Shown in pieces: positions 7,638 through 38,711 of a stretch of 64,000 nt of DNA (position 1 is the first letter of the stretch; the number at the start of each line of letters is the position of its first letter). A model generated the notes under the pieces. It was not told where the DNA came from and did not search any database. It saw only the letters and a program-made list of their open reading frames with translations. The translations under genes were made by a program, and so were the position numbers. The DNA is from Pseudomonadota bacterium. GTDB lineage: Bacteria > Myxococcota_A > UBA796 > SXON01. Location of the stretch: contig SXON01000240.1 in NCBI GenBank assembly GCA_005778355.1, forward strand, positions 8,938-72,937, read 5' to 3'.

Positions 7638-7917
7638 ACCCGCTCCCACGCCGCCGGGCACGCGGCGAGCGCACACCAGTCGCCTCGGCACCTCCGCCTC
7701 CCGTCGTGAGCGATTGCTGCATGGACCGGAATCGTCGTGAGTACAGTGCGCTCCAACCGGACGCGCGGCCGCTTCCCGCGCCGACCCGGGCTGACGACCC
7801 GACGAAAACGGCGGTTTGTCCGTCGCGCCCCCCCTTCGGTCGTGCCTCGACGCCCTCGCGGTCGCCTGCCGTGTCATTCCAGTCACCCTGTGCTCACGAC
7901 GAGTGCGGTTCGCATCG

Positions 7918-7989
7918 TCATCGCTTGCGACGGCGCACGGTGCTACCCATCCCCACCGAGCCAGGCGAGCAAGCAACGAGCAACCACAT
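7918..7989 (-). pseudogene. Orphan lipoprotein signal-peptide remnant (MWLLVACSPGSVGMGSTVRRRKR*)
   Basis: A 23-codon ORF whose first 10 codons and upstream ~60 bp parallel the start of gene A (MWMLFACAPDSV). It terminates immediately afterwards. Confidence 0.45.
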
Positions 7990-8049
7990 CCCCGCAAGAC
8001 ACCCCCTTGCCCCTCCCTCCGTGCCCTCTGTGCGAGCCACTCTTGCCCC
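7965..8049. repeat. Leader/promoter segment, copy 2 (partner of 7545..7637)
   Basis: See 7545..7637. Confidence 0.7.
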
Positions 8050-8156
8050 GCGTCACCACCCCGTCTCAACCCCGCCCCGCTCGCCACAAAAAAAGACCTT
8101 GCAGATTCTTCACGCCCGGGTGTATACGCCGCCTCCCCAAAAACACGGTGCTCCGT

Positions 8157-11129: not shown

Positions 11130-11139
11130 GAATACGACA

Positions 11140-12168
11140 ATGCGCTTCCTCCTCCTCTGCCTCGCCGCCTGCCCCAGCGGCGACGACACCGCCAAGGATG
11201 GCGACACCGAGGTCGGCCACGACTCCGGCAACGACACCGGCGACGATACCGGGACCGATACCGACACCGATACCGGCGACGACACCGCCGTCGACACCGG
11301 CGACGACACTGGCGAGCTGCCCCCGCCGGAGCTCGTTGCCATCGAGTGGACCACGCTCCCCGCCACCGACATCACGACGCGCGACACCCTCGCCCTGCAG
11401 GTGACGGCCTCGTTCAGTGACGGCAGCAGCACCGACGCCTCGGCGATGGTGAGCTACGTCTCGAGCGACGAGATGGTGCTCAAGGTCTATGAGCCCGGCG
11501 TGGGCCAGCCCATCTGGGCGGGCAGCGTCACGGTCACCGCCACGCTCGAGGGCCACGAGCTCTCCGCGACGGCAAACGTCACGCTCGCCAGCGCCACCAC
11601 GGGCGACCTCGTGTTCAACGAGGTGCTCGCCGACGGCACCGTCGACGGCGACCCCAACGGCGACGGCAACCCCGACGCCGTGGAAGACGAGTTCGTGGAG
11701 ATCGCCAACGCGTCGGACGTGACGGTCGACCTCTCGGGCTACACGTTGGTGGAGGAAGACCTCTACTACCTGCCGCGCCACACCTTCGCCGAGGGCACGG
11801 TGCTCCGCGCCGGCGAGGCGATCGTCGTGTTCGGCGGTGGGGACACCTCGAGCCTGGCGCCCACCAACTGCACCGCCGTGGTGGCGGTCAACGGCGACTC
11901 GGCGCTCGAATACGGCCTCGCGCTCAACAACGAGGGCGAGAACATGTCGCTGGTCGATACCGCGGGCACCACGGTGGCGGGCTTCGCCTACGGCGACGGC
12001 ACCGACATCGAGGCCATTGAGGACGCGAGCTACGTGCTCAGTCCCGAGGTGTACGGCACCGACTACACGCACCACACCTACGCGACCGGCAGCACCGGCG
12101 ACTTTTCCGCCTGCGCCTACGTCGATGGCACCGCCTACGCGGGCCACGACGCGCGCTACTCCCCGTAG
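11140..12168 (+). CDS. Lipoprotein with Big_2-like Ig domain and one lamin-tail domain
   Basis: The ATG at 11140 gives MRFLLLCLAA|C, followed by a D/T/G-rich linker, an Ig-like segment (TLALQVTASFSDGSSTD...VTVTATLEG) and an LTD (VFNEVLADG...EFVEIANAS). Confidence 0.65.
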   Translation: MRFLLLCLAACPSGDDTAKDGDTEVGHDSGNDTGDDTGTDTDTDTGDDTAVDTGDDTGELPPPELVAIEWTTLPATDITTRDTLALQVTASFSDGSSTDASAMVSYVSSDEMVLKVYEPGVGQPIWAGSVTVTATLEGHELSATANVTLASATTGDLVFNEVLADGTVDGDPNGDGNPDAVEDEFVEIANASDVTVDLSGYTLVEEDLYYLPRHTFAEGTVLRAGEAIVVFGGGDTSSLAPTNCTAVVAVNGDSALEYGLALNNEGENMSLVDTAGTTVAGFAYGDGTDIEAIEDASYVLSPEVYGTDYTHHTYATGSTGDFSACAYVDGTAYAGHDARYSP

Positions 12169-13675: not shown

Positions 13676-15067
13676 ATGCACGCCGCCAACCCCATCGAGC
13701 GCCTCGCGTTGCGCGCCACCTCCCTCGCCGAGCGGTACATGCCCGACGCCTTCGTCTTCGCGCTGGGTGCCACGCTGCTCACCCTCCTAGGCGCGCTCGG
13801 CGTCGACCCGGCGATGCGCGCGGAGCCCTCGAGGCTGGTGCTCGCGTGGGGCAACGGCTTCTGGGAACTGATCAAGTTCACCCTCCAGATGAGCATGATC
13901 GTGATCGGCGGCTACGTGCTCGCCTCCAGCCCGCCGGTGGCTCGGCTCATCGAGCGACTCGCGCGCCTGCCCCAGAGTGGCCGGGGCGCCGTGGCGCTGG
14001 TGGCCTTCGCGGCGATGATCTCGTCGCTTTTGAACTGGGGTTTCTCCCTGGTCTTCGGGGCCTTGTTCGCGCGTGCCGTGGCGCGGCGCCGGCCCGACGC
14101 TGATTACCGCGCGTTGGCGGCCTCGAGTTTCCTCGGCCTCGGCACGGTGTGGGCGCAGGGCCTCTCGGGCTCCGCAGCCTTGCAGATGGCCTCGCCGAGT
14201 TCGATGCCCAAGGCACTGGTGGAGATCGTGGGCAACCCGATCCCGCTCACCGAGACCATCTTTCGCTGGCAGTCGATGGCCTGCGTGGTGATCGAGGTGG
14301 CGGTGGTCACCCTCGTGGCGTGGCTGGCCGCGCCGGGGCCGGAGCGCGCGAAGAACGCGGCGGCGCTCGGGGTCGACCTGCGCGACGAGGCCCCCGTGGC
14401 CCCTGGCGCGATCACCCCCGGCGAACGTTTCGAACACAGCCCAGCGCTACTCTTGCCCGTGGTGCTGCTCGGTTTCGCCTACTTGTTCCTCTCGATCCGA
14501 GCGCGTTCGACCGGCGTGGCGGATGCGCTCAATGCGCTGGACTTCAACACCATCAACTTGTTCTTGCTCATGCTCGGGGGCCTCTTGCACTGGACCCCGG
14601 CGTCGCTCATGCGGGCGGTGAAAGACGCCACGCCGGCCGCGTGGGGTGTCCTGCTCCAGTTCCCCTTCTACGGCGGCATTTTCGGCGTGATGGCGGGCTC
14701 GCAGCTGAGCCACGCCATTGCCTCGGTGTTCGTGAATGCGAGCAACGCCACGCTCTACCCGGCGGTGATCGTCACCTACTCGGCGGTGCTGGGGATGTTC
14801 GTGCCGAGCGGCGGCAGCAAGTGGGTGATCGAGGCGCCCTATGTCTTGCAGGCCGCGCGCCAGCTCGGCGTGCCCGATGGCTGGATGGTGGTGTCCTACG
14901 ACCTCGGCGAGGCCATCGCCAACCTCTGCCAGCCCTTCTGGATGTTGCCCATCCTCGCGCTCCTCGGCCTGAAGGCGCGTGACATCATGGGCTTCACCTG
15001 GCTGGTCGCGATGGTGCTTTTCCCGCTTGTGCTGGTGCTGGTCACGGTTTTCTGCCCGAGTGCGTAG
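13676..15067 (+). CDS. Short-chain fatty acid transporter (AtoE-like) family membrane protein
   Basis: 463 aa and polytopic. The N-terminus (ERYMPDAFVFAL) and overall length resemble the AtoE/TIGR00366 family as I recall it. Confidence 0.55.
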   Translation: MHAANPIERLALRATSLAERYMPDAFVFALGATLLTLLGALGVDPAMRAEPSRLVLAWGNGFWELIKFTLQMSMIVIGGYVLASSPPVARLIERLARLPQSGRGAVALVAFAAMISSLLNWGFSLVFGALFARAVARRRPDADYRALAASSFLGLGTVWAQGLSGSAALQMASPSSMPKALVEIVGNPIPLTETIFRWQSMACVVIEVAVVTLVAWLAAPGPERAKNAAALGVDLRDEAPVAPGAITPGERFEHSPALLLPVVLLGFAYLFLSIRARSTGVADALNALDFNTINLFLLMLGGLLHWTPASLMRAVKDATPAAWGVLLQFPFYGGIFGVMAGSQLSHAIASVFVNASNATLYPAVIVTYSAVLGMFVPSGGSKWVIEAPYVLQAARQLGVPDGWMVVSYDLGEAIANLCQPFWMLPILALLGLKARDIMGFTWLVAMVLFPLVLVLVTVFCPSA

Positions 15068-15110
15068 TGTCGGCGCGCGCGTCGGCAGTCGGTCGTGCTA
15101 GGCTGGACCG

Positions 15111-16475
15111 ATGTGGATGCTGCTCCTCGGGTGCAATGGCTCGGCGAAGGAGGCGGTGGAGGACTCCGGCGGCGCGGGTGACTCTGGCGACGTGGATAGC
15201 GGTCGCGACAGTGGGGACGTGGGGGAGGGCGACACGGGGGACACCGGGGCCGGGTGTGTCGAGGTCCGGGACGTCGAGGGGATTCGGCTCGAGGATCCTA
15301 GTAGTATCGGGGGAGAGCTCCTCGGGGTGTCGACCACGACCCAGGGCGGGGAGCCGATGCTCGCCGTGGGGTCGCCAAGCTACGGCGTTCTCGCTCACCT
15401 CATCGCGATGCCTACGTCCTCCGCGACCAGCTTGGACGAGCTGCTCGTCGCAGATTTCCCTTCCCACGAGTCGAGTGAGCCGTACACACCCCGTGACATC
15501 GATGGCGACGGCATTCTCGACGGCGTGGCCTTCCTGATCGACTGGGAATACGAGTTCGACTACTGGTCGTACAGCCTGGACTACCGGGGTGAACTGAGAT
15601 TCGCCGCCATCAATGGCCCGGTGCTCGACGAGCCAGGCGCGACCATGAATGTCGATCTCGGGCACGTGGAGCTTCTGGACACGCTCGGCGGGCCGTGGCA
15701 AACGGCTCAAGGTGGCGAGTTCGACGCAGAACCGGGGATGGACCTCCTCGTGACGGTGACCGACTGGTGGGGTGCCGCCCCCGGCTACGCCTGGCTTATC
15801 GACCCCCACGGAACGACGGGGCCGCGCGCGGTGGATCCTGGGAGCCCGAGCACGGTGGTTGCCGCCGGCGACCTCGACGGTGACGGCACCATCGACATCG
15901 TGACGACTTACCAGGGGGACGGCTACACCTGCGTGCTCGGTGTCGCTCTGGGCCCGATGGGGGACTCCATTCCGAGCGTCGCTCAGGCCGACTCAACGCT
16001 ATACACCGACTCCTGCGGTTTGACGGGCGCGGAGATTGCCCTGGGTGACGTCACCAAGGACGGCCTCGACGACATCGGTTTCGATGCCGGTGACATCCAT
16101 TTCATTGCCGGGCCCGTCCCGTACGGGAACGCCGAGGACGTGGCCTTCCTCACCCTCACGGGTTCGTCCGATGAATGCCTGATTCATGAGTATATAAGCG
16201 GGGACATTGGCGATGATGGCACCGCAGATCTCGTCGGGACATTCATGTGCACTGACGTCGCCGATCCCGAGTACGAAGACTACCGCCAACAACCCGCCGT
16301 CTATTTCGGCTACCCAGCGGGCGTCGCGACAGAGTGTGACGCCGACGTGATGTTCACGAGTCCGAACAACAGCGGAATCCTCAAGCCGACGGGTCAGGCG
16401 ATCATGCCCACCGGCGAGGTCTGGCTTTGGGAATACGACGGCACGACGAGAGGCTATTGGCTCACCGAGTTCTAA
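15111..16475 (+). CDS. FG-GAP/VCBS-repeat lipoprotein
   Basis: Signal MWMLLLG|C. Repeated calcium-binding-type motifs are present: DIDGDGILDG, GDLDGDGTIDIV, GDVTKDGLDDIG and GDIGDDGTADLV. Confidence 0.65.
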   Translation: MWMLLLGCNGSAKEAVEDSGGAGDSGDVDSGRDSGDVGEGDTGDTGAGCVEVRDVEGIRLEDPSSIGGELLGVSTTTQGGEPMLAVGSPSYGVLAHLIAMPTSSATSLDELLVADFPSHESSEPYTPRDIDGDGILDGVAFLIDWEYEFDYWSYSLDYRGELRFAAINGPVLDEPGATMNVDLGHVELLDTLGGPWQTAQGGEFDAEPGMDLLVTVTDWWGAAPGYAWLIDPHGTTGPRAVDPGSPSTVVAAGDLDGDGTIDIVTTYQGDGYTCVLGVALGPMGDSIPSVAQADSTLYTDSCGLTGAEIALGDVTKDGLDDIGFDAGDIHFIAGPVPYGNAEDVAFLTLTGSSDECLIHEYISGDIGDDGTADLVGTFMCTDVADPEYEDYRQQPAVYFGYPAGVATECDADVMFTSPNNSGILKPTGQAIMPTGEVWLWEYDGTTRGYWLTEF

Positions 16476-16605
16476 GGGCGGCCAACGCCGTGTTGCCCGC
16501 CGAGCGACGACCTCCCCTCCCGCAACACCCACAAGGCCGCGTGAACCAGAAGCCCGCCGTCGCAGCCTCCAAAGACGGCCAACGCCTCGCTCCTCGCACT
16601 CTGCA

Positions 16606-16613
16606 ATGTATCA
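16606..16613. promoter_or_regulatory. ATGTATCA motif copy (intergenic)
   Basis: Exact copy of the TGTATCA/TGATACA 7-mer that otherwise occurs only inside his genes in this window. Confidence 0.3.
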
Positions 16614-16829
16614 GGCCCGCCGGTTCATCTCGGCCTGCCGCGGCCGTTCCACCCGTCGTAACCGGAGACCACTCGAACGCCCATCGTCGCAAGCGGTCGC
16701 TCTTCGAGTGCGCAACGCCACCGAGACCGACGCCTCCGACACCGCCCACGGCACGAGCAAAGCTCCATAGTTCTCCACCCCTAGCCCCCTGTCGGCCCCC
16801 AAGGCGCGCCAAGTCGGCCCCGTCTGTGT

Positions 16830-16885
16830 ACTCAAGCAGCGACCGCTCACGACGATGTGCACTCAAGCAGCGACCGCTCACGACG
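16830..16885. repeat. Direct repeat actcaagcagcgaccgctcacgacg x2 (31-bp period) with an imperfect inverted copy at 16692..16710
   Basis: The 25-mers at 16830-16854 and 16861-16885 are identical. agcggtcgctcttcgagtg at 16692-16710 is approximately their reverse complement (about 16/19). Confidence 0.8.
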
Positions 16886-16969
16886 CCCACCCGCCGGAGA
16901 CGAACCCGCCACCGCTGAGTCACCCCGGCGCCCTCGCGGCCACCCCGCCCAGAGCGCGCCCCCCGCCAT

Positions 16970-17683
16970 TCAAGCTTCGTAGCAATTGTTCCCCGAGTCC
17001 GGCGGCACCTCGGTGGTCACTGGCGACTCGCCGCCCTGGTACTCCGGGTCCACCAGCATCTCGAAAACCAGCGGGCTGCCCACGTTGCAGTCGGCCGCGA
17101 TCTTCGGCTCGCCCGAGCCGTCCACCTCTGGCGTCCAGGACTGGAGCACCACCACGCGGTACACGTCGCCCTGCATCACCACCCGCCCAGGTTCCCCCGG
17201 CAAGAGCTCCACGTCGCCCTCGTCGGTGGCGAAGATCGCCGGGCGCACCTCGGCCACCATGCCGTCGACGGTCGCCACGCCCACTGGTTCGCCGTGTCGC
17301 GCGAAGCCCGCCCCGAAGTAGTCCTCGGCCAGGGTGCCGCCCCCGATCGCATCGTAGAGGTAGGTGACACTGTCGCCGCCGTCGATGCCGCGCGAGTCGA
17401 CCGCCACCCACCAGAGGTCGCCGTTCGAATCGTTGGCCCCCACGTCGAGCACGGCCGCACTCCCGTCGAGCCGCCCGAGATCCGCCCCCGTCGGGGTAGT
17501 CACCACCACGCTCGACTGGTTGTCGCCCACCGTCCAACTCCCCTCCCCCTCGGCCGAGATGTCGAGGTCGGGGCCCATCCCCTCCGTGAAGGGATCGGAC
17601 ACCGCCACGCTCGGCAACAACTGCTCGACAGGGAACTCCGGCAGGGCAGGCTCGCAGGCCACCAGCAACGCGAAGACGATCAT
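16970..17683 (-). CDS. Hypothetical lipoprotein
   Basis: The ATG at 17683 is preceded by AAGGAG. Signal MIVFALLVA|C. The upstream part of the 442-aa track ORF is antisense to hisH and was rejected. Confidence 0.6.
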   Translation of the reverse strand: MIVFALLVACEPALPEFPVEQLLPSVAVSDPFTEGMGPDLDISAEGEGSWTVGDNQSSVVVTTPTGADLGRLDGSAAVLDVGANDSNGDLWWVAVDSRGIDGGDSVTYLYDAIGGGTLAEDYFGAGFARHGEPVGVATVDGMVAEVRPAIFATDEGDVELLPGEPGRVVMQGDVYRVVVLQSWTPEVDGSGEPKIAADCNVGSPLVFEMLVDPEYQGGESPVTTEVPPDSGNNCYEA

Positions 17684-17803
17684 CGGCACTCCTTGACCAA
17701 CCACGAAGCAGCAAACAGCATGCCATGCAGGAACAAGGCCATGTTCTTCACGGTGTCCAAGAACCCCGCGACGCGAATGTCGCCCCGGGGATAGCTGCCG
17801 ACC

Positions 17804-18355
17804 GTGCGTGTGACGCTCCTCGACTACGGCATGGGCAACCTGCGCAGCGTCACCCGCGCCCTCGAGGCCGCTGGTGCCGACGTGTCGCGACAAGAAATAG
17901 TCGGAGACGGCCCGCTCGTCCTGCCAGGGGTGGGCGCATTCGGCCGCGCCGCCGAGAACCTGCGTGGCCAGCGCTGGGAAGCCCTGCGCGAACACGTGAA
18001 GCAAGGCCGACCGTTGCTCGGCATCTGCCTCGGCATGCAGCTCTGCTTCGAGTCGAGCGAGGAGCACGGGCAGCACCAAGGGTTCGGCTTCTTCACCGGG
18101 CAGGTGCGCCACCTTGGCGTGGGCATCACCGTCCCCAACATGGGTTGGCACCGTCTCGCCGGGCTCGGCGATCCCTGGGCCTACTTTGCCCATAGCTACG
18201 GCGTGCGCCAGTCTCCCCACGCCATCGCCCACATCGAACATGGCGGATCCGTCGTGGCCGCCGCCCGCCGCGACAATGTGCTCGGTTTCCAGTTTCACCC
18301 AGAGAAGTCCGGCGCCGCCGGGGTGGCGCTCATCAAGGAGTGGTTACGATGTTAG
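17804..18355 (+). CDS. hisH: Imidazole glycerol phosphate synthase, glutamine amidotransferase subunit
   Basis: Motifs DYGMGNLRSV, LPGVGAFG, GICLGMQ, NMGWH and FHPEKS. GTG start. Confidence 0.9.
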   Translation: MRVTLLDYGMGNLRSVTRALEAAGADVSRQEIVGDGPLVLPGVGAFGRAAENLRGQRWEALREHVKQGRPLLGICLGMQLCFESSEEHGQHQGFGFFTGQVRHLGVGITVPNMGWHRLAGLGDPWAYFAHSYGVRQSPHAIAHIEHGGSVVAAARRDNVLGFQFHPEKSGAAGVALIKEWLRC

Positions 18356-19050
18356 CCTGGCCTGCCATCGACCTCCTGGGGGGCCGCGCGGTGCGGCTTG
18401 TGCACGGCAAGCGGGAAACCGCCGAGGTCGTCGGCGACCCCCTCGAGATCGCCGCCCGGTGGGCGCTCGCTGGGCAAGCGCACGTGGTCGACCTCGACGC
18501 GGCCTTCGCTGGAGCACCGTCGCAAGTCGCCCTGGTGAGGCGTATCGCCGAGATCGTGCCCGTCGAGGTGGGCGGCGGCGTGCGATCCCTCGACGACATC
18601 CAGCGCTGGCTCGACGCGGGCGCCCGCCGCGTGGTGGTTGGCACGGCAGCCTTCTCGGGACTCCTGGAACCGGCGCTGGCGCAATTCGGCCCGGAGCGAA
18701 TCGTGGTGGCCGCCGACGTGAAAGACGGGAAGATCGCAGTGAAGGGCTGGACTGATACATCTGATGTATCAGTGATACAGGCCGTGACGATGCTGCGCGA
18801 CGCGGGCGCGCACACCGTGCTCGTGACGGCGGTGCATCGCGACGGCACCATGGAAGGCCCGGACTGCACGGTGCTCGACCATTTTCACGAGGGCGGCCTC
18901 GCCGTTCTCGCCTCGGGCGGCATCGGCACGCTCGAACACCTTGTGCAAACACGAAAGTACGCCGGCACGATCATCGGGAAGGCGCTGTACGCCGGTCGCT
19001 TCACCCTCGCCGAGGCGATGTCGGTGCTCACCGAAGGCGCCCGTTGTTAG
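18349..19050 (+). CDS. hisA: ProFAR isomerase
   Basis: Contains [15 protein letters not shown] and a C-terminal GxxxGKALY. The ATG at 18349 lies 8 nt after AAGGAG. An in-frame GTG at 18340 is an alternative start. Confidence 0.85.
18752..18780. promoter_or_regulatory. Perfect palindrome CTGATACATC-T-GATGTATCAG plus a third half-site TGATACAG, inside hisA
   Basis: Read directly from the sequence. It encodes [10 protein letters not shown] using A/T-ending codons (ACT GAT ACA TCT GAT GTA TCA GTG ATA CAG) in a gene that is otherwise GC3-rich. Confidence 0.4.
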
Positions 19051-19784
19051 CGGTGCGCGTGATTCCCTGCCTCGACGTGAAAGACGGCCGGGTGGTGAAG
19101 GGGGTCAACTTCGTGGGCCTGCGCGACGCGGGCAACCCAGTGGAGGCCGCCGCCCGCTACGACGCCGAGGGTGCCGACGAGCTGGTTTTCCTCGACATCT
19201 CCGCGAGCCACGAGGGTCGCGACACCATGCTCCACGTGGTGCGCGAGGTGGCCGACCGGCTCTTCATCCCGCTCACCGTGGGTGGGGGCGTGCGGACTGT
19301 CGACGACTTCGCGCGCCTGCTCGACGCCGGCGCCGACAAGGTGGCGGTCAACACCGCCCTGGTGGAGAACCCGGCGCTGGTGACCGAGGCGGCCGCGCGC
19401 TTCGGCACCCAGTGCGTGGTCGCGGCGGTCGACACCCGGGCCGAAGTGATCCACACCCACGGCGGGCGCAGGCCCACGGAGCGGCGGCTCGTCCCCTGGC
19501 TCGCCGAGCTGGTCGACCGGGGCGCCGGCGAGATCCTCCTCACCTCGATGGACCACGACGGCACCCGACGTGGTTTCGACCTCGACGGCGTCCGCCGGGC
19601 CCGGTCCGCCGTGCCGGTCCCGATCGTCGCCAGCGGGGGCGCCGGGACGGCCGAGCACTTCGCCGACGCGGCCGACACCGGGGCCACCGGCCTGCTCGCC
19701 GCGTCGTTGTTTCACTTCGGCGAGCTGTCGATCGCGGCCGTGAAGGCCTCGCTGGCGGCGCGCGGCCACCTCGTGAGACACTGA
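19044..19784 (+). CDS. hisF: Imidazole glycerol phosphate synthase, cyclase subunit
   Basis: (M)[22 protein letters not shown] matches the canonical HisF N-terminus. The TTG start overlaps the end of hisA. Confidence 0.9.
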
Positions 19785-19787
19785 AAC

Positions 19788-20396
19788 ATGATCGATGTAT
19801 CACGGATATGCTGGAACGAGGCGGGACTTTGCCCGGCGGTGGTGGTTCACGCCGTCACCGGTGAGGCGCTGATGCTCGGCTGGATGAACGCCGAGAGCCT
19901 GCAACGCACCGAGGCCACGGGCGAGGCCTGGTTCTGGTCGCGCAGCCGCGCCGAGTTGTGGCACAAGGGCGCGACCTCGGGCAATACCCTCGCGGTGGAG
20001 AGCATCGCCCTGGACTGCGACGACGACGCGCTGCTGGTGCGCGCTGTCCCCCGGGGGCCCACCTGCCACCGGGGCACGACGGCTTGCTGGGACGGGGACA
20101 CCGGCGGCATCGTCTCGGCGCTCGACCACACCCTCCGCGCCCGACGCGGTGCCGCGGGGAGCTACACCGCGCGCCTGCTCGCCGACGAGGCGCTAAGAAT
20201 CAAAAAGGTGGGCGAAGAAAGCGCTGAGCTGATCCACGCCGCCCTTCGACGCGACGACGCGGCGCTCGCCGAGGAAGCCGCCGACCTCCTCTACCACCTT
20301 GCGGCCGTGCTCCACGGCCGCGGCCTGTCACTCACCGATGCGCTCGCGGTGCTCCACGCGCGCCACGGCCAGCCCCACCGCGGCCAGAAGCTATGA
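19788..20396 (+). CDS. hisI: Bifunctional phosphoribosyl-AMP cyclohydrolase / phosphoribosyl-ATP pyrophosphatase
   Basis: The HisI part has WFWSRSR..LWHKGATSGN and the CDDDALL/CHRG..CW metal motif. The HisE part has LRIKKVGEESAE...EEAADLLYH. Confidence 0.9.
   Translation: MIDVSRICWNEAGLCPAVVVHAVTGEALMLGWMNAESLQRTEATGEAWFWSRSRAELWHKGATSGNTLAVESIALDCDDDALLVRAVPRGPTCHRGTTACWDGDTGGIVSALDHTLRARRGAAGSYTARLLADEALRIKKVGEESAELIHAALRRDDAALAEEAADLLYHLAAVLHGRGLSLTDALAVLHARHGQPHRGQKL
19794..19802. promoter_or_regulatory. GATGTATCA motif copy at codons 3-5 of hisIE
   Basis: ATG ATC GAT GTA TCA CGG ATA TGC. Rare A/T-ending codons sit directly at the hisF-hisIE junction. Confidence 0.35.
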
Positions 20397-20671
20397 TGTC
20401 GCCCATGTGGCTCTGGCTCCTCATCTGTTGTGCCGACGAGAACTCATGTCGCGACTACGTGGATGTCGTGGCGGCCTGCAACGAGGCAGCCGGGGGCGAC
20501 ACCGTCTACGACGCCGAGACCATCTGCGGCGAGTGGACGGCCGAGCAAGAGGCCGACTACGGCGCGAAATACCAGTGCCGCGCCGCCGCCTACGAGGGCG
20601 TCGACTGCGCCGACACCGAGGCTCGCGAGGCCGCCGTCAGCGAAGAGGGGATGTGCGCCGAGGGAGAGTAG
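20393..20671 (+). CDS. Small Cys-rich acidic lipoprotein/secreted protein, fifth gene of the hisHAFIE operon
   Basis: ATGA overlap with the hisIE stop. GC3 is high throughout. MMSPMWLWLLIC|C. About 8 Cys in 92 aa. Confidence 0.55.
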   Translation: MMSPMWLWLLICCADENSCRDYVDVVAACNEAAGGDTVYDAETICGEWTAEQEADYGAKYQCRAAAYEGVDCADTEAREAAVSEEGMCAEGE

Positions 20672-20674
20672 TCC

Positions 20675-21262
20675 CTACCCGTCGAGCATGCCCTTGGTGC
20701 TCGCCACCTTCGTGGTGCCGTCGCGCCGGGTGGCCGCCCGAAGGGCCCGCCCACAGGCCTTGAAGCTCGCCTCGCACACGTGGTGGTAGTCGCGACCGTG
20801 CAAGGCTTCCACGTGGAGATTGGCGCCGAGGTGGTCGCAGAGTGCCTTCCAGAAGCCCTCGAGCACGGTGAGATCGATGGTCGGGGTGTACACCCCCGGG
20901 ACGCTCACCCGCCAGGCCAGGTAGGCGCGTCCCGAGAGATCGAAGGCCGCACGCACAAGGGCCTCGTCCATGGGCATGTAGGCGTGCCCGGTGCGCTCGA
21001 TGCCGCGGCGATCACCGAGCGCCGCGCGCAGCGCCTGTCCGAGGACGATCCCCACGTCCTCCACGGTGTGGTGCGCGTCGATCTCGAGGTCGCCCTTGGC
21101 GTTGACCAGGAGCCCAAAACGCCCGTGCTTGGCGAAGGCCTCCAGCAGGTGGTCAAAGAAGGGAAGCCCCGTCTGGACGGCGATCTTGCCGCCATCGAGG
21201 CCTACATCCACGCTGATTGTCGTTTCCTTCGACTGGCGCTCGGCGCGTCCGCTTCGGTTCAC
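20675..21262 (-). CDS. hisB: Imidazoleglycerol-phosphate dehydratase (monofunctional)
   Basis: Contains GLPFFDHLLEAFAKHG and DAHHTVEDVGIVLG. 195 aa, with no HisN phosphatase domain. Confidence 0.9.
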   Translation of the reverse strand: MNRSGRAERQSKETTISVDVGLDGGKIAVQTGLPFFDHLLEAFAKHGRFGLLVNAKGDLEIDAHHTVEDVGIVLGQALRAALGDRRGIERTGHAYMPMDEALVRAAFDLSGRAYLAWRVSVPGVYTPTIDLTVLEGFWKALCDHLGANLHVEALHGRDYHHVCEASFKACGRALRAATRRDGTTKVASTKGMLDG

Positions 21263-23583
21263 GCTTCACCCCCGATGGTCGCAAGGAACAAGTCGTCCTC
21301 GGCCCGGCTGCCGATGCTCACCCTGAGGAAACCGGGGATGGTGGCGGACAGGTCGCGAACCAGCACCCCCGCAGCGAGGAGCCGCCGGAACTCCCCGGCT
21401 GGGTCGTCCGTCGAGAAAAGCAGGAAGTTAGCGCCGCCTTCTACCACGTGACGCCCTCGCGCCCGGAGCGTCGCTGCCAGCCGAGCTCGCTCGCTGGTGA
21501 CGTGTTGCACGCGCGCCGCCACGAGGTCGGGCGTGTCGAGAAGCACGGAAACCGCCGCCCGGGTGAAGGCGTTGACGTTATAAGGCAAGAGCAACTTGTG
21601 GAGTTCCAGGCAGAGGGACGGTGGCCCCAGCATGTAGCCGAAGCGGAGCCCGGCCATCGCGAGCGCCTTGCTGAAGGTGCGCAGCAAGACCACCCGGCCG
21701 CTCTCGAGGAAGACGGAGAAGTCTTGGCCGCACCACTCGCGGTAGGCCTCATCCACCACCAGGAGCGCGTCAGACTGGGTCTTGAGCACCCGGAGGATAC
21801 CTGGGTGGAGCACTGATCCGGTGGGGTTGTTGGGCGAGGTGAGGATGGCGATCTTGGCGCTGCGCACGGCCGAGAGACAGGCGTCGATCGAATAGGCGAA
21901 GTCGTCTTGTCGCGACAGAGGGATGCGCACGATGTCGGCCCCGCGGGCGCCCAGGAGGAGCGGGTACAGCGAGAAACAGGGATCGGGGATCGCCACGCGC
22001 TCGCCGAAACCCACCGTGGCCTGGATCAACGTGGCGAGGATCTCGTTGCTCCCGTTGCCGATGAGCACCCCCTCTGGCTTCCAGCCGTCGCGACGCGCGA
22101 TGAGCTCGCGCATCTCGACGTCGTCAAACGGCGGGTACCGCCGCCAGTCCAGGGCCAGCGCGCGGTCGAGGATGCGCTGCTTCACGTCGCGGGGCAGGTC
22201 GTCCGGTGCCTCGTTCTGGTTGAGCTTGGCGGGGGCGTCCGGTGGCGCGGTGAGCGTGTAAGCCTTGAGGGCTCGTACCTCGGGGATCACCCAGTCAGCG
22301 GCAGTGCGGGCGATGCCGCCGCCGACCGCCGCGTCGCCAAGCCGGACTTCAACGGCGCGAGCATGACCGGGCAGCCCCTCGGCGCGTGCGAACTCCACGA
22401 CGCTGGCGCCCTCGCGGAAAAGCCACTCCGCGTCGTGGGCGATCACCTGGACCCGGCGGACGAAGTCAGCCGTGCCGAGCGCCGATTGGAATCGGGCACA
22501 GCCGCCAGTGGGCAGCGTGTGGTTCGGCCCGGCGAAGTAGTCGCCCACGGGCTCGGGGCTGAAGCCACCGGCGAAGATCGACCCAGCGGCGGTGATCCGG
22601 TCCACGAGCGAGGGGTCGGCCTCGATCTGAAGGTGCTCCGGCGCGTAGCGGTTCACGAAGGCGACGGCGCCGTCGATGCTGGCGGCGAGCAGGATCCAGC
22701 CGTTCTGCTCCAGGGCCTCGGCGGCCACCGGGTTCGGGAAACGCAAGAGCTCGCGCTCCAGGGCGGGGCCGAGATCGTCGAAAACGCGGCGGGAGGTGGT
22801 GACGCAGAGTGGGATCGCCAGGGGATCGTGCTCGGCCTGCGCGATGAGATCGCAGGCAACGCGCCAGGGATCGGCCGACTCGTCGGCCAGGACCAGTACT
22901 TCCGAGGGTCCCGCGTGAATGTCGACCCCCACCCGGTGCGACACCTGCCGCTTGGCCTCGCCCACGTAGGCGTTGCCGGGGCCGGTGATCTTGTCGACGC
23001 GCGGCAGGGCGTCGGTGCCCAAAGCGAGCGCGGCCACGGCCTGGGCGCCACCGACACGGAAGACATCGGTCGCCCCGGCAACCAGCGCCGCCGCGGCGAT
23101 GACGGGGTTGATGCGCCCGTCCTTGCCCGGCGGGGTGACCACGCAGATGCGCCGGACACCGGCCACGCGCGCCGGGACCACGTTCATCAGCACGGTGGAG
23201 GGGTAGGCAGCGCGGCCGCCGGGCACGTAGCAGCCCACCACGTCGAGCGGGACGATGCGCTGGCGCAGGTGCCCGCCTGCCAGCGTGAAGGGACGCGGTC
23301 GTTGCGGGCCGTGGAAGGCCGCGATGTTCTCGGCGGCATGGACCATGGTGCTGACCAGTCCCTCGGGCACCGTCTCGGCGAGGGCCACCAGTTCGTCCTG
23401 TCGCACGCGCGCGGCGGGCACGTCCACGCCGTCGAAGCGATGGGTGTACTCGCGCACGGCGCGGTCGCCCCGGGCCGCCACGCTCGCGATGATCTCGCTC
23501 ACCACCTCGCCCACGCCGGCCGGCGCCAGCTCGCGCCGGGCGAGGACCACGGCCCCCTCGCGTTCTACCGTCCCTCGTCGCAT
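21259..23583 (-). CDS. hisD-hisC: In-frame fusion of histidinol dehydrogenase (N-terminal) and histidinol-phosphate aminotransferase (C-terminal)
   Basis: The ATG at 23583 opens a 774-aa frame with no stop. HisD motifs: GGAQAVAALA, ITGPGNAYV, AGPSEVLV, QAEHD. A ~20-aa linker follows (LGDAAVGGGIARTAADWV). HisC motifs: KLNQNEAP, NGSNE, SPNNPTG, DEAY, RTFSKALAMAGLRFGY. The 115-codon extension in the track ORF was rejected. Confidence 0.8.
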   Translation of the reverse strand: MRRGTVEREGAVVLARRELAPAGVGEVVSEIIASVAARGDRAVREYTHRFDGVDVPAARVRQDELVALAETVPEGLVSTMVHAAENIAAFHGPQRPRPFTLAGGHLRQRIVPLDVVGCYVPGGRAAYPSTVLMNVVPARVAGVRRICVVTPPGKDGRINPVIAAAALVAGATDVFRVGGAQAVAALALGTDALPRVDKITGPGNAYVGEAKRQVSHRVGVDIHAGPSEVLVLADESADPWRVACDLIAQAEHDPLAIPLCVTTSRRVFDDLGPALERELLRFPNPVAAEALEQNGWILLAASIDGAVAFVNRYAPEHLQIEADPSLVDRITAAGSIFAGGFSPEPVGDYFAGPNHTLPTGGCARFQSALGTADFVRRVQVIAHDAEWLFREGASVVEFARAEGLPGHARAVEVRLGDAAVGGGIARTAADWVIPEVRALKAYTLTAPPDAPAKLNQNEAPDDLPRDVKQRILDRALALDWRRYPPFDDVEMRELIARRDGWKPEGVLIGNGSNEILATLIQATVGFGERVAIPDPCFSLYPLLLGARGADIVRIPLSRQDDFAYSIDACLSAVRSAKIAILTSPNNPTGSVLHPGILRVLKTQSDALLVVDEAYREWCGQDFSVFLESGRVVLLRTFSKALAMAGLRFGYMLGPPSLCLELHKLLLPYNVNAFTRAAVSVLLDTPDLVAARVQHVTSERARLAATLRARGRHVVEGGANFLLFSTDDPAGEFRRLLAAGVLVRDLSATIPGFLRVSIGSRAEDDLFLATIGGEA

Positions 23584-24188
23584 CGGCCGAGCCTCTCGAG
23601 AAAGGGGGCAAGCGCCTCGCGTTGCAGCGCGTAGCTCGCCCGGTTGACCACCACCCGCGCGCTCACCTCGGCGAGCGTCGCGTACTCCACCAGACCATGC
23701 GCGCGCAGCGTGGCCCCGGTCTCCACCAGGTCGACGACGGCGTCGGCCAGCCCCACCACCACCGCTAGCTCCACGCTCCCATGGAGGGGGATCAGCTCGG
23801 CCACCAGGCCTCGTCGCGACAGGGCCTCGCCCGCCATGCGGGGGTACTTTGTGGCCACGCGGAGACCATCCTCGCGCATGCGGGCGACGAGATCGCTGCC
23901 TGGTCGCCCGCAGAGCGAAAGCCGACACCGCCCAAGGGTGGTCGTGACCGGCTCCAGCACGTCGGCCGGGTGCTCGCGCAAGACATCGAGCCCGGCCACG
24001 CCGAGGTCGGCCACGCCGCGCGCCACGTACGCGGGGACGTCGGGCGGCTTGAGCAGGAGGAACCTCACGCCGCCGTCGCGACCCGGCACCACGAGCTCAC
24101 GGCCATCAACCTGCACGGGACCGATCTCGGCAAGCGCCGCGACCACCTGGTCGGCGAGGCGTCCCTTGGGCAGGCCGAAGGTGATCAT
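23565..24188 (-). CDS. hisG: ATP phosphoribosyltransferase, short (HisZ-dependent) form
   Basis: 207 aa. N-terminus is ITFGLPKGRL. Confidence 0.85.
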   Translation of the reverse strand: MITFGLPKGRLADQVVAALAEIGPVQVDGRELVVPGRDGGVRFLLLKPPDVPAYVARGVADLGVAGLDVLREHPADVLEPVTTTLGRCRLSLCGRPGSDLVARMREDGLRVATKYPRMAGEALSRRGLVAELIPLHGSVELAVVVGLADAVVDLVETGATLRAHGLVEYATLAEVSARVVVNRASYALQREALAPFLERLGRCDEGR

Positions 24189-24961
24189 CGGCGTCCCCGG
24201 GCGATCATCTCCACGTCGAGCGAGAAACCGACGGCGCTTCGCGGTCGGCCGTAGCGCGCGCAGAGCCCATCGTAGCGACCGCCACCCCCGAGAGGGCCGG
24301 GGAAGCCTGGGGCGAAGAGGTCGAAGACGATGCCCGTGTAGTACGGGAAACGACGCACGTGTGCAGGATCTGGACGAAGCCTCGATCCAATTGCATTTTG
24401 AAGCAACGATACGTCGGGTGATACATCAACGAGGTTGATACATGTATCATGCGTCAATGCGCTTGCATCACGACGGTCGAGCGCGTCACGCAGGGTCGGA
24501 TCGGCGAGCGCCCCCGGCCGCTGCGCCTCGATTCCAGCCACGCTGCCAACCACGAGCACGGCGTCGTCGAGCCCGAGCGCGTCGGCCGCACTCAACGCCA
24601 GGCGCAAGATCTCCTCGTCGCCGGGGCCGACCTCGGTGCCGTAGGCCTCGACGCCGGCCTGCCAGCGCTGGTGCCCACCCCGGAAAACGATGCCGCGGTA
24701 GGCCAGGCGGACTGGGCCGTCCACGCCCTCCCAGCGGGTCGACACCAGCCTCGCCAGGGGGCCAGTGAAGTCGGATCGCAACGCCATCACCTGGCCGTCT
24801 TGCACCAGCCGCGGGGCGTCGTCGCTGAGGTACACCCCGGCGTCTTCCACCATCGGGACAATGACCTCGTCGAAGCCGTGTGCCCGGACATGGTCGAGCA
24901 AGGCGGATTCGACGCGCCGGATGGCACGGGCGAGGGCGGGGAGACGGTCGGCGGCCGACAC
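24185..24961 (-). CDS. hisZ: ATP phosphoribosyltransferase regulatory subunit (HisRS paralogue), short version
   Basis: Has a class-II aaRS-like motif (ALRSDFTGPLARLV and GGGRYDGL). It sits directly upstream of short-form hisG with a 4-nt overlap. Confidence 0.7.
   Translation of the reverse strand: MSAADRLPALARAIRRVESALLDHVRAHGFDEVIVPMVEDAGVYLSDDAPRLVQDGQVMALRSDFTGPLARLVSTRWEGVDGPVRLAYRGIVFRGGHQRWQAGVEAYGTEVGPGDEEILRLALSAADALGLDDAVLVVGSVAGIEAQRPGALADPTLRDALDRRDASALTHDTCINLVDVSPDVSLLQNAIGSRLRPDPAHVRRFPYYTGIVFDLFAPGFPGPLGGGGRYDGLCARYGRPRSAVGFSLDVEMIARGRR
24419..24449. promoter_or_regulatory. TGATACAT half-site plus 14-bp perfect palindrome TGATACATGTATCA, inside hisZ
   Basis: Sites at 24419-24426 and 24436-24449. 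They are embedded in a ~85-bp AT-enriched island (24385..24470) about 230-260 bp upstream of the hisG start. Confidence 0.4.
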
Positions 24962-24985
24962 GCCGGGCGGCCTATCCGCGTGAGG

Positions 24986-25495
24986 CTACGGGTGCGCCTC
25001 TTCCAGCAGCCCTTCCATCTCGGGGCGCGGAAACACGTTGGCCCGCGCTCGACTCGCGCGCACCACGAAGCGGTCCACCGGCACGCGATCAGGGCCCTCA
25101 GGAGGTCGGCCGCTGAACTCCGGGGTGGCCGAGAGGTAGCGCAACGCGATCTCGAGGCGCGTATTCATCTCCAGCGCGTCGACGGCGGCGCCATAGCGGG
25201 CGGTGGGCTGCGGCTCCACGACGGCGCGGAGCACCTCGTCGAGGGTGGGCGAGGAGCCTCGGTTCCAGGCGTTGAGCAGGTGTTCGCGGATGAGCGCGGT
25301 GAACGGGCCGATCTCGCGGAGCCCGACCCGGGCCGAGAGCGCGCTGGCCAGCTCGTTGGCGAGCCACCGGCGGGCTGGGCCTCGCACCTGGGGACCGGGG
25401 TCGGCGAGGAGGCGGTTGGGATCGGGCTGGCGCATGATTGCGTTTCGGCGAGAACGGCGCGAGCTTGAGGGCGCCATTGACGTGTCAAGTGCCAA
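24986..25495 (-). CDS. Hypothetical protein
   Basis: Open frame with GC3 bias and no recognised domain. The start is uncertain; an internal ATG at 25435 is possible. Confidence 0.35.
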   Translation of the reverse strand: MALDTSMAPSSSRRSRRNAIMRQPDPNRLLADPGPQVRGPARRWLANELASALSARVGLREIGPFTALIREHLLNAWNRGSSPTLDEVLRAVVEPQPTARYGAAVDALEMNTRLEIALRYLSATPEFSGRPPEGPDRVPVDRFVVRASRARANVFPRPEMEGLLEEAHP

Positions 25496-25544
25496 GTCTT
25501 AACCCTTAACCTCCGGCACCTTTCGGGGCGGTTAGGGATGAGCC

Positions 25545-25979
25545 ATGTCCGTCGCCGAGCTGCTTCGTACCGTGCCCTTCGCCCACGGGGCCGACCTGTC
25601 GATCGTCCACAGCGAGCCGGGGCACGCGGTGGTGCGCATCCCCCACGTCACGGGCAACCTCAACCACGTGGGCACCATCCACGCCGCGGCGCTGGTGCTC
25701 GTTGGGGAAACAGCCGGCGGTCTAGCCCTCTTGTCGCACCCGCGGCTGTCACCCTACCTCTTGCTCGCGAAGGGCCTGGCCATCCGCTACCGGCGACCCG
25801 CCCCAGCCGCGTGCAACGCCCACGCGCGGGTGAGCGAGGAGGAGGTGGAGCAGGCCGTGGCAGCGGTAGAGGCCGCGGGCAAGGTGGATCTCCCGCTACG
25901 CATCGAGGTGCGCTCTGACGAGGGAGAGCTCCTCGCCGAGCTCACCGTCGACTACCATCTCAGGAAGCGAAGCCAGTGA
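25545..25979 (+). CDS. Hotdog-fold thioesterase-like protein (PaaI/DUF4442-like)
   Basis: 144 aa. NHVGTIHAAALVLVGETAGG is typical of PaaI-type hotdog proteins. Confidence 0.5.
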   Translation: MSVAELLRTVPFAHGADLSIVHSEPGHAVVRIPHVTGNLNHVGTIHAAALVLVGETAGGLALLSHPRLSPYLLLAKGLAIRYRRPAPAACNAHARVSEEEVEQAVAAVEAAGKVDLPLRIEVRSDEGELLAELTVDYHLRKRSQ

Positions 25980-26671
25980 TAAAGACTGGCGTGCCCGACC
26001 GCATCCTGCTCATCGAGGACGACCCGTCCATCCTGCGCGGCCTGGAGCTCAACCTCGGCCTCGAGGGCTACGAGGTGCGCGCGGCGATCGACGGGCCGAG
26101 TGGCCTCCGCGTGGCCACCGAGTGGAAGCCCGACCTGGTGCTGCTCGACATCATGCTCCCGGCGATGAACGGCTACGAGGTTTGCCGCGAGCTGCGGCGC
26201 CGCGGCCACTCGGTGCCGGTCATCATCCTCAGCGCCAAGGGCACTGAACCCGACAAGGTGATGGGCCTCGACATCGGCGCCGACGACTTCGTCACCAAGC
26301 CCTTCGGGCTGGCGGAGCTCCTGGCTCGCATCAAGGCCCAGCTCCGCCGTGGCAAACCTCCGCCTGCCCCCGCCTTGCGTTTCGGCGACGTCGAGGCCGA
26401 CTTCTCGGCCGGCGAGGTGCGCCGCAAGGGCGAGCTCCAAGAGATGACCGCCCGCGAGCTCCAGCTCCTGCAGTACTTGGCCAAACACGAGGGCCGCGTC
26501 GTGACGCGGCAGATGATCCTCGACGCGGTGTGGGGCGAGAACTACTTCGGTACCGAGCGCACCGTCGACAACTTCATTACTCGCCTGCGCCAGAAGCTCG
26601 ACGACGACGACCCCCGGCACTTCCTCACCGTTCGCGGCATGGGCTACCGCTTCAAGGGCGACGCGCGATGA
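25976..26671 (+). CDS. OmpR-family DNA-binding response regulator
   Basis: The receiver has ILLIEDD, DLVLLDIMLP and ILSAKG. The winged-helix end is TVRGMGYRF. No sensor kinase gene is adjacent. Confidence 0.85.
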   Translation: MIKTGVPDRILLIEDDPSILRGLELNLGLEGYEVRAAIDGPSGLRVATEWKPDLVLLDIMLPAMNGYEVCRELRRRGHSVPVIILSAKGTEPDKVMGLDIGADDFVTKPFGLAELLARIKAQLRRGKPPPAPALRFGDVEADFSAGEVRRKGELQEMTARELQLLQYLAKHEGRVVTRQMILDAVWGENYFGTERTVDNFITRLRQKLDDDDPRHFLTVRGMGYRFKGDAR

Positions 26672-38573: not shown

Positions 38574-38634
38574 GCCTTCGAATCCCGTTCGGGGCCACCG
38601 CCCCAAACAACGGTTCAACGCCGAAACGTAGCGG

Positions 38635-38711
38635 TGGACCAGGTGGGAGTCGAACCCACAGGATGACCGGGATTTTAAATCCCGCGCGTCTGCCAGTTGC
38701 GCCACTGGTCC
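38635..38711 (-). tRNA. tRNA-Leu (anticodon UAA), atypically short variable region by hand folding
   Basis: Sequence: GGACCAGTGGCGCAACTGGCAGACGCGCGGGATTTAAAATCCCGGTCATCCTGTGGGTTCGACTCCCACCTGGTCCA. It has a 7-bp acceptor stem, a Leu-type D arm, the anticodon arm CGGGA-TTTAAAA-TCCCG and the T arm GTGGG-TTCGACT-CCCAC. No CCA is encoded. Length is 77 nt, against about 85 nt for typical bacterial tRNA-Leu. Confidence 0.7.

Follow-up and report, generated by a model that had tools for sequence, protein, structure and literature searches.

The 64-kb window analyzed here, the whole stretch of 64,000 nucleotides of contig SXON01000240.1, contains two convergent operons for histidine biosynthesis (his). 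Their coding sequences carry clusters of an exact heptamer, TGATACA (TGTATCA on the other strand), and this word very likely represents a novel element that controls the his genes in a pathway-specific manner. A pattern search found eight exact copies in the window, at the positions that a first-pass annotation of this DNA had read by eye and nowhere else. Dinucleotide-preserving shuffles of the window give an expectation of 0.90 ± 0.95 copies with a maximum of 4, close to the single copy that had been estimated, and eight or more copies were attained in 0 of 100 shuffles. Heptamers with one mismatch occur at chance level (37 vs 38.7 expected), so the signal resides in the exact word. A longer form, ATGTATCA, is present in seven of the eight copies, and GATGTATCA in four. 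Barring one protein-domain repeat, the heptamer is the most spatially clustered AT-rich k-mer of the window.

The his genes make up 10.7% of the window, yet they hold seven of the eight heptamers (binomial p = 1.2e-6). These seven sit in three tight arrays, located in hisA, at the hisF/hisIE junction and in hisZ. The claim that the word is exclusive to the his cluster stands for these copies; it does not for the one at 16607, which is probably a chance occurrence outside the system, because the segment that holds it is absent from a relative, it has no partner nearby and 0.9 copies per window are expected anyway. The missing segment spans about 15060–17190 of the window (~2.1 kb), and the relative lacking it by BLAST, L001, is 91% identical (relatives are referred to by the handles of their contigs or loci).

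The open reading frame (ORF) listing together with Pfam matches confirmed both his operons, as well as the assignment of the seven clustered copies to hisA, hisIE and hisZ coding sequence (Table 1). Three copies form the hisA array, in codons 138–146 at +413 of the gene, and two perfect palindromes of 21 bp (18752–18772) and 15 bp (18765–18779) overlap in it. The junction array, which consists of one exact and three degenerate copies, spans the hisF stop and the hisIE start codons; its exact copy starts 8 nt past the hisIE ATG, and that start is operon-internal. The hisZ array has five units including three exact copies (24419–24449), lies in codons ~171–182 (about +510 to +555) and contains a perfect 14-bp palindrome at 24436–24449. 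The palindromes noticed at first reading are hence real, and the distances then put at about 290 bp to hisF and about 240 bp to hisG were measured as 291 and 231–261 bp. All three arrays are located inside the his transcription units and downstream of the promoter, which is the position expected of an intragenic operator or roadblock site.

Table 1. Coordinates of the heptamer copies, arrays and genes in the 64-kb window
Feature	Position	Strand	Details
Heptamer copies	16607, 18753, 18765, 18773, 19796, 24419, 24436, 24443	-, +, -, +, -, +, +, -	exact word
Lone copy	16607..16613	-	intergenic, convergent gene neighbours; no partner within 30 bp
hisA array	18752..18779		cTGATACA-tctga-TGTATCA-g-TGATACA
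hisF/hisIE junction array	19774..19810		TGAgACA-c-TGAaACA-tgatcga-TGTATCA-c-gGATAtg
hisZ array	24407..24456		sense (-): TGAcgCA-TGATACA-TGTATCA-n10-TGTATCA-n5-cGTATCg
Operon hisH-hisA-hisF-hisIE	17804..20396	+	ORFs, Pfam matches
hisH	17804-18355	+	ORF, Pfam
hisA	18340-19050	+	ORF, Pfam
hisF	19044-19784	+	ORF, Pfam
hisIE	19788-20396	+	ORF, Pfam
Operon hisZ-hisG-hisD/hisC-hisB	20675..24961	-	ORFs, Pfam matches
hisZ	24185-24961	-	ORF, Pfam tRNA-synt_His
hisG	23565-24188	-	ORF, Pfam
hisD-hisC fusion	21259-~23610	-	Histidinol_dh + Aminotran_1_2, one ORF
hisB	20675-21262	-	ORF, Pfam
orf149	24986-25432	-	conserved 148-aa ORF directly upstream of hisZ; no known domain
OmpR-family response regulator	25976-26671	+	no adjacent histidine kinase; ~1 kb from hisZ, after DUF4442 thioesterase gene

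Several properties of the arrays show that it is the nucleotides, and not the encoded residues, that matter. The A/T-ending codons used to write the heptamer are rare, as had been pointed out: in the window GTA accounts for 2.8% of Val codons, TCA for 3.3% of Ser, ACA for 3.2% of Thr and ATA for 1.8% of Ile, and GAT for 15.5% of Asp. From codon usage, the probability that Asp-Val-Ser is encoded as GAT GTA TCA is 1.4e-4, and this is seen three times. The copies are read in several frames (T GAT ACA, TG ATA CA, T GTA TCA, TGT ATC A), with at least four combinations of frame and orientation in use. In protein alignments the arrays fall in variable loop or linker regions, relatives without the motif encode different residues at the corresponding positions, and no array coincides with an indel, on which ground an origin as insertions or mobile-element scars was rejected. 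When the codons of hisA were aligned, the 21-nt core of the window proved identical to those of L001, L161, L195 and L194 at 16–20 of 21 positions; outside the core, identity is 62–83% overall and 42–60% at third positions. Five lineages retain the same third-codon bases in the core (T,T,A,-,T,A,A), in genes with a third-position GC content of 69–90%, and the array patches, 20–50 nt long, lie within otherwise ordinary GC-rich genes. On the strength of these comparisons, the motif is under nucleotide-level purifying selection, because it is written in several frames and in very rare codons and its synonymous positions are conserved. The first-pass annotation had argued likewise for selection at the DNA or RNA level rather than for protein constraint.

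Relatives of the organism are sparsely sampled. Those available were freshwater and groundwater metagenome-assembled genomes (MAGs) titled 'Deltaproteobacteria bacterium', one mislabelled contig, and contigs from Logan and ENA; the sequencing runs that contain the organism are DNA metagenomes only, with no RNA runs among them. The hisA palindrome TGATACA-n5-TGTATCA is intact in L001 and L161 and imperfect in L003, L195 and L194, and hisA sites persist at HisA identities of only 61–91%, with synonymous positions of the motif retained even in relatives at 61–65%. The hisIE array is found again in L003 and L010, where its last copy is better (TGATACg). Orthologous hisZ arrays comprise three exact copies in L165, and four exact plus one near copy in L166, where the array is the sole AT-rich island in 12 kb; among three close relatives, the number of hisZ copies is 3, 3 and 4. 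Sites have also moved. L083 has lost the +413 site of hisA and has instead a 14-bp palindrome, TGATACATGTATCA, at +323; L195 has a single copy at hisA +323 and another one in a HAD-hydrolase gene of the operon, between hisD/C and hisB, whose product is probably the histidinol-phosphatase. In a second sub-clade (L194, L321, L322) sites are located at the hisH 3′ end and at hisA +248. The heptamer is missing from the relatives L163, L167, L197 and L323, which are more distant or have a very high GC content. This pattern of gain and loss is typical of binding sites. Whereas the orthologous his genes of relatives do carry sites, a check that the first-pass annotation had proposed, its suggestion that they are placed near operon-internal junctions is not supported by the comparison, given sites at hisA +248, +323 and +413, at the hisH 3′ end and in the HAD phosphatase gene.

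In non-redundant DNA of the clade (~155 kb), 30 of 31 heptamers are in his-pathway genes. This corresponds to 30 copies in 35.4 kb of his genes vs 1 in 119.8 kb of other DNA (0.85 vs 0.008 per kb), a difference of ~100-fold. Judged by this distribution, the motif is specific to the his genes of this lineage. The alternative that the word is scattered at similar density elsewhere, also envisaged at first reading, finds no support in the ~120 kb of non-his clade DNA available, which has a single copy.

A variant of the word was observed in L321 (521–541, 846–866 and 1020–1040), one population from sample SRR28842990. TGTGTCA takes the place of TGTATCA in each of its three reverse copies, cGAcACA is found at two forward copies, and the sites have thus changed in concert. 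Position 4 may accept either purine, or the word may have co-evolved with its reader. As to the mislabelled contig, L002 (CAMAWH010000015.1) is titled as a 'Klebsiella pneumoniae' MAG; it has 65% GC and the same myxobacteria-like his cluster as L195, and the record is evidently mislabelled or mis-binned.

The arrangement of the copies in the window and the relatives is variable. Convergent pairs are separated by 0, 5, 7 or 17 nt and divergent pairs by 1 nt; direct repeats stand 0 (a 7-bp tandem period), 5 or 10 nt apart, and single copies occur as well. Centre-to-centre distances are 7, 8, 10, 12, 14 and 17 bp, with no helical phasing, and the two orientations are near equal on the sense strand (13:16). 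The palindromes had been taken to indicate the operator of a dimeric transcription factor. Such a classical dyad operator of fixed spacing is ruled out by the variable gaps (0, 1, 5, 7, 10 and 17 nt), the direct repeats and the single copies, and none of the sites is at a promoter. The geometry resembles that of systems with repeated binding to a short unit. Since the word recurs in four genes and five of the nine stem positions of the hisA palindrome are invariant across lineages, the comparison points to a putative sequence-specific trans-acting reader rather than to mere secondary structure. Equal use of both orientations, together with direct, tandem, inverted and single copies, fits a site in duplex DNA, and such a site is the simplest account of all the arrangements.

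Quite possibly, then, the arrays are sites for a putative sequence-specific DNA-binding his regulator that works as a roadblock or from internal operators, and this is the reading that we tentatively favor. The parts of it that we infer are the DNA target, the protein reader, and the sign, effector and mechanism of the control. TGATACA, in its fuller form GATGTATCA and with TGAYACA tolerated in one lineage, would be a cis-regulatory word of the his operons, placed in groups of two to five copies at those parts of the his coding sequence where the protein tolerates it. Each copy would be a duplex-DNA site for one subunit or domain of the regulator, and clustering would lead to cooperative binding at high occupancy. 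The bound regulator might block the elongating RNA polymerase or act on internal promoters or loops, actions suggested by the position of the clusters inside transcription units and not at promoters. As an outcome, the his genes located downstream would be expressed at a lower level, a form of end-product control for which histidine or an intermediate of the pathway is presumably the signal.

A number of points weigh against a DNA-binding regulator of this kind. The probable promoter regions that precede hisH and orf149-hisZ contain no copy, and the variable spacing matches no known dimeric family. Specificity for his genes was measured on no more than ~120 kb of non-his clade DNA, and the clade counts are not phylogenetically independent. 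The sole gene for a DNA-binding protein near the cluster encodes an OmpR-family response regulator, and the synteny of this gene with his is present only in the closest relatives and not in more distant clade members. Besides, nearly every copy has an inverted partner 0–7 nt off, and some of the changes among relatives preserve pairing: U-A becomes C-G in hisA of L321, U.G occurs in hisH of the same lineage, and there are G.U wobbles in L165, L194 and L321.

These last points would suit a word that is read in the his mRNAs, either as hairpins or as a linear motif for an RNA-binding protein, a small RNA or a sequence-specific endoribonuclease. Such a signal would control mRNA stability, polycistronic processing or translation; the hisIE array covers the start codon and, according to the folding, is able to sequester the AUG. 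Placement within the transcripts that is independent of position suits a decay or processing signal, and the hisA palindrome folds better than shuffled sequences in the window and in L001 (z about -2.9). The other seven of nine segments (L161, L195, hisZ, hisIE and others), however, reach z values of only -0.3 to -1.5 and fold no better than shuffled ones, and AU-rich stems of 7 bp make poor hairpins; in a 70% GC genome, a stable stem needs no rare AU-rich codons. The covariation score of hisA was reached by 85 of 500 shuffles; in this alignment of only seven sequences, both bases differ in two of the nine pairs and five pairs are constant. Uncompensated mismatches (C.A, A.A, G.G) are present in L003, L195, L194 and the hisIE array of the window. 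Palindromes with zero gap, tandem direct repeats and single copies cannot make a hairpin at all, and the symmetric change beside the dyad centre (C/G, U/G, U/A) concerns bases too close together to pair in one. A linear RNA motif, in turn, is expected in one orientation, as opposed to the 13:16 ratio observed. We regard reading at the mRNA level as a less likely explanation, and as the main rival of a DNA site.

Considerably less probable is a dispersed element that resembles the repetitive extragenic palindromic (REP) sequences and bacterial interspersed mosaic elements (BIME), or some genome-wide signal such as an uptake sequence or a nucleoid-protein site, in either case not specific to the pathway. 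The heptamer does form groups at loci unrelated to histidine in two other organisms, with 21 copies in 16 kb of JBEIQS01 and seven in 5 kb of L221. In the clade of the window, on the contrary, the his genes hold 30 of the 31 copies and the 119.8 kb of other DNA only one, which speaks against REP/BIME identity. The copies are in frame and without insertions, the orthologous codons are conserved down to 61% protein identity, and REP elements are extragenic by definition. Short imperfect palindromes in clusters are common to both, but REP/BIME elements lie outside genes and throughout the genome, whereas the copies of the window are intragenic, in frame and confined to one pathway. As for clusters of rare codons that slow translation of the His enzymes for folding or coupling, or leftovers of chance or composition, for instance after horizontal transfer, the arrays are indeed built of the rarest codons of the genome and lie in variable loop or linker regions, but selection for rare codons cannot account for one exact 7–9-mer in several frames, both orientations, four genes and several lineages, no shuffle attains eight copies, and the patches of 20–50 nt sit within normal GC-rich genes, which makes this the most improbable explanation of all.

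We also searched for control elements of known types. No Rfam family was found at gathering score in the cluster, nor at E ≤ 1 over 16400–25700, and a tRNA scan found no tRNA near the sites. The HisR operator (cacTTTAnnnnnnTAAAgtg or TGTAnTArnnnnyTnTTACA) has no match in the window at up to 2–3 mismatches. The arrays are moreover not placed as HisR operators are with respect to promoters (-350 to +50): they are at hisA +413 and at about +510 to +555 of hisZ, and a start codon is close by only in the case of the hisIE array, where it is internal to the operon. The neighbourhood of the cluster is free of His-codon runs, and runs of four such codons occur only at 8750 and 57500; a His leader or T-box(His) was accordingly rejected, having neither an Rfam match nor a leader with a His-codon run. 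A sigma70 promoter scan of 16–26 kb gave no promoter-like site, and terminators were at chance level. Sigma54 promoters (TGGCAC-N5-TTGCA-like, at least 9 of 11 matches) were not found in the window, and the arrays are not sigma54 enhancers (upstream activating sequences), as no GG-N10-GC promoter is located downstream of them. With no known his control element present, there is none to do the job in place of the heptamer. Literature searches on the heptamer and on his regulation in Myxococcota found nothing relevant; together with the empty search of the cluster, this agrees with the earlier statement that no his regulator or operator with this motif is known to have been described in Myxococcota. 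To our knowledge, leader attenuators, T-boxes and HisR are the only devices on record for his control, and for Myxococcota-like bacteria there is none.

Operators within genes are known for PurR in purB, GalR in galE (OI), the lac repressor in lacZ (O2), CcpA in the hut and gnt operons (cre sites) and CodY. The likeness to the arrays consists in a specific word within the coding sequence of the regulated operon, downstream of the promoter and flexible in position. The known intragenic operators have one site with a fixed dyad, usually auxiliary to a promoter operator, and a known regulator, whereas the putative roadblock considered here would consist of variable arrays of a 7–9-bp unit, none of them promoter-proximal. 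Roadblock repression by PurR, GalR, CcpA and CodY inside operons is established, and several roadblocks are expected where a strong effect or a wide range is needed (PMC4132739), which fits the clusters and the presence of several arrays per locus. Comparative genomics uncovered the HisR regulon, which a TrpR-family protein governs in Firmicutes, Actinobacteria and some Proteobacteria by way of 20-bp palindromes in promoter regions (PMC9413887). It shares with the heptamer the use of a lineage-specific cis motif to control histidine genes at the DNA level (PMC9413887), but motif, geometry and location differ. His leaders and T-boxes serve the same purpose for his operons, but they are 5′ leader RNAs.

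Operators built as arrays of short repeats include the Fur box (GATAAT hexamers, or 7-1-7 with TGATAAT), the metboxes of MetJ, the heptamers of NarL and the decamers of TorR, which are found at promoters with a regular phasing of 6, 8 or 10–11 bp. They resemble the his arrays in having a short unit, a variable copy number and both direct and inverted copies; the his arrays differ in their irregular spacing, and no link to metals or to another regulon was found. As a lead only, the forward-forward-reverse order of hisZ, TGATACA TGATACA TGTATCA, recalls the forward-forward-x-reverse order of the Fur box, and five of seven bases are shared with TGATAAT.

Two genes near hisZ were considered as sources of the reader. 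The OmpR-family response regulator is a weak candidate. The conserved ORF directly upstream of hisZ, orf149, was rejected as a regulator: it has no Pfam domain, and in relatives its homologues accompany a ketosynthase/acyl carrier protein (ACP) cluster and not his genes. In L318–L320 these homologues end a cluster with a ketosynthase-like gene, an ACP gene and a 298-aa ORF, a context which indicates that orf149 is part of the neighbouring lipid/polyketide-type cluster.

None of the known devices for his control is present in the window, and no described histidine regulatory system matches the arrays. It is quite possible, though we say so with some reserve, that this uncultured, GC-rich deltaproteobacterial/Myxococcota-like lineage runs histidine synthesis by means of a new regulator with the intragenic arrays as its sole operators, or by means of an equally new reader at the mRNA level. 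If true, the pathway would be governed mainly by roadblocks within genes or by that mRNA-level reader, and not by a promoter operator, an attenuator or a T-box, and the operons would possibly be regulated mainly from within their own genes. The heptamer provides a handle for finding the putative regulator. It is also a clean natural case of dual coding, in which protein and regulatory information share the same bases and are kept over a long divergence, and a warning to annotators that AT-rich patches of rare codons in GC-rich genes can be functional.

Outside the clade, a collection-wide search was made with the pattern TGATACATN{1,5}ATGTATCA (equivalent to TGATACAT-n1-5-ATGTATCA); the clade's own MAGs were not among the matches listed. 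Those listed are mostly chance occurrences in AT-rich genomes plus unrelated palindromes, the latter located upstream of a C5 methylase fused to a helix-turn-helix (HTH) domain, in a phage terminase region and at a toxin-antitoxin-like HTH gene of Rothia; none of these non-clade loci, among the matches listed, has his genes. A connection with Zur or Fur was considered for the Rothia palindrome (L303, TGATACATTATGTATCA), which is near a CobW-like gene, and was discarded: the palindrome is actually found at the beginning of the HTH gene, which is followed by a zeta-toxin-like AAA gene.

Two GC-rich MAGs from outside the clade abound in the word, and both have it mostly between genes and at unrelated loci. 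The 21 copies of JBEIQS01, an alphaproteobacterial MAG (L215, L288), include TGATACATGTATCATGTATCATGTATCA, and its arrays (L215 3683–3753 and 6654–6735; L288 136–163, 5262–5283 and 6344–6415) are mostly intergenic, partly between convergent genes, and at unrelated genes. Three of them share ATGTATCACGAwAAAGmTTGTAGmA beside a GTAG palindrome, and the arrays look like a REP/BIME-type repeat family. The seven heptamers in 5 kb of L221, a proteobacterial MAG from Lake Erken, are found at 2017–2041, 2479–2499 and 4858–4878. A 39-bp spacer that separates two ORFs is taken up by three direct repeats with a 9-bp period, and other copies are paired inside ORFs; the genes, for a Wzt ABC transporter, a pyridine nucleotide-disulphide oxidoreductase and a ferredoxin-like protein, are unrelated to histidine. 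The word can thus serve otherwise elsewhere, which does not alter its restriction to his genes in the window's own clade.

The his cluster itself has some further features. Histidinol dehydrogenase (HisD) and histidinol-phosphate aminotransferase (HisC) are fused in a protein of ~783 aa. L163 and L195 have the same fusion, with lengths of 783 and 770 aa, and two more gene pairs, hisZ-hisG and hisF-hisIE, are fused in L163. A histidinol-phosphatase gene is absent from the cluster of the window (20396–21262), so that the phosphatase of that organism must be encoded elsewhere. In relatives, a HAD-like hydrolase gene is located between hisD/C and hisB (L195 13082–13699; L163 8053–8820).

The segment at about 15060–17190, whose absence from L001 is due to a recent insertion or deletion, contains a gene for an FG-GAP-repeat protein, a 500-bp non-coding stretch and part of a lipoprotein-like ORF; in L001 a short-chain fatty-acid transporter gene almost adjoins hisH. 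The remainder of the window encodes unrelated functions, among them a lamin-tail domain (LTD) repeat protein, a sulfatase, RNase E/G and a major facilitator superfamily (MFS) transporter. The LTD protein, large and of secreted type, is encoded at 7710–12165 (+) and has four LTD domains; a gene for a second LTD protein follows. A DNA repeat in the first gene, GAGATCTACAA, occurs at 9228, 9717, 10209 and 10716, that is, at intervals of 489–507 bp. Finally, the genome has 70% GC, and TTA, a very rare codon in it, is read by a tRNA-Leu with anticodon UAA (38633–38711, -), which is comparable in kind with the bldA tRNA of Streptomyces.

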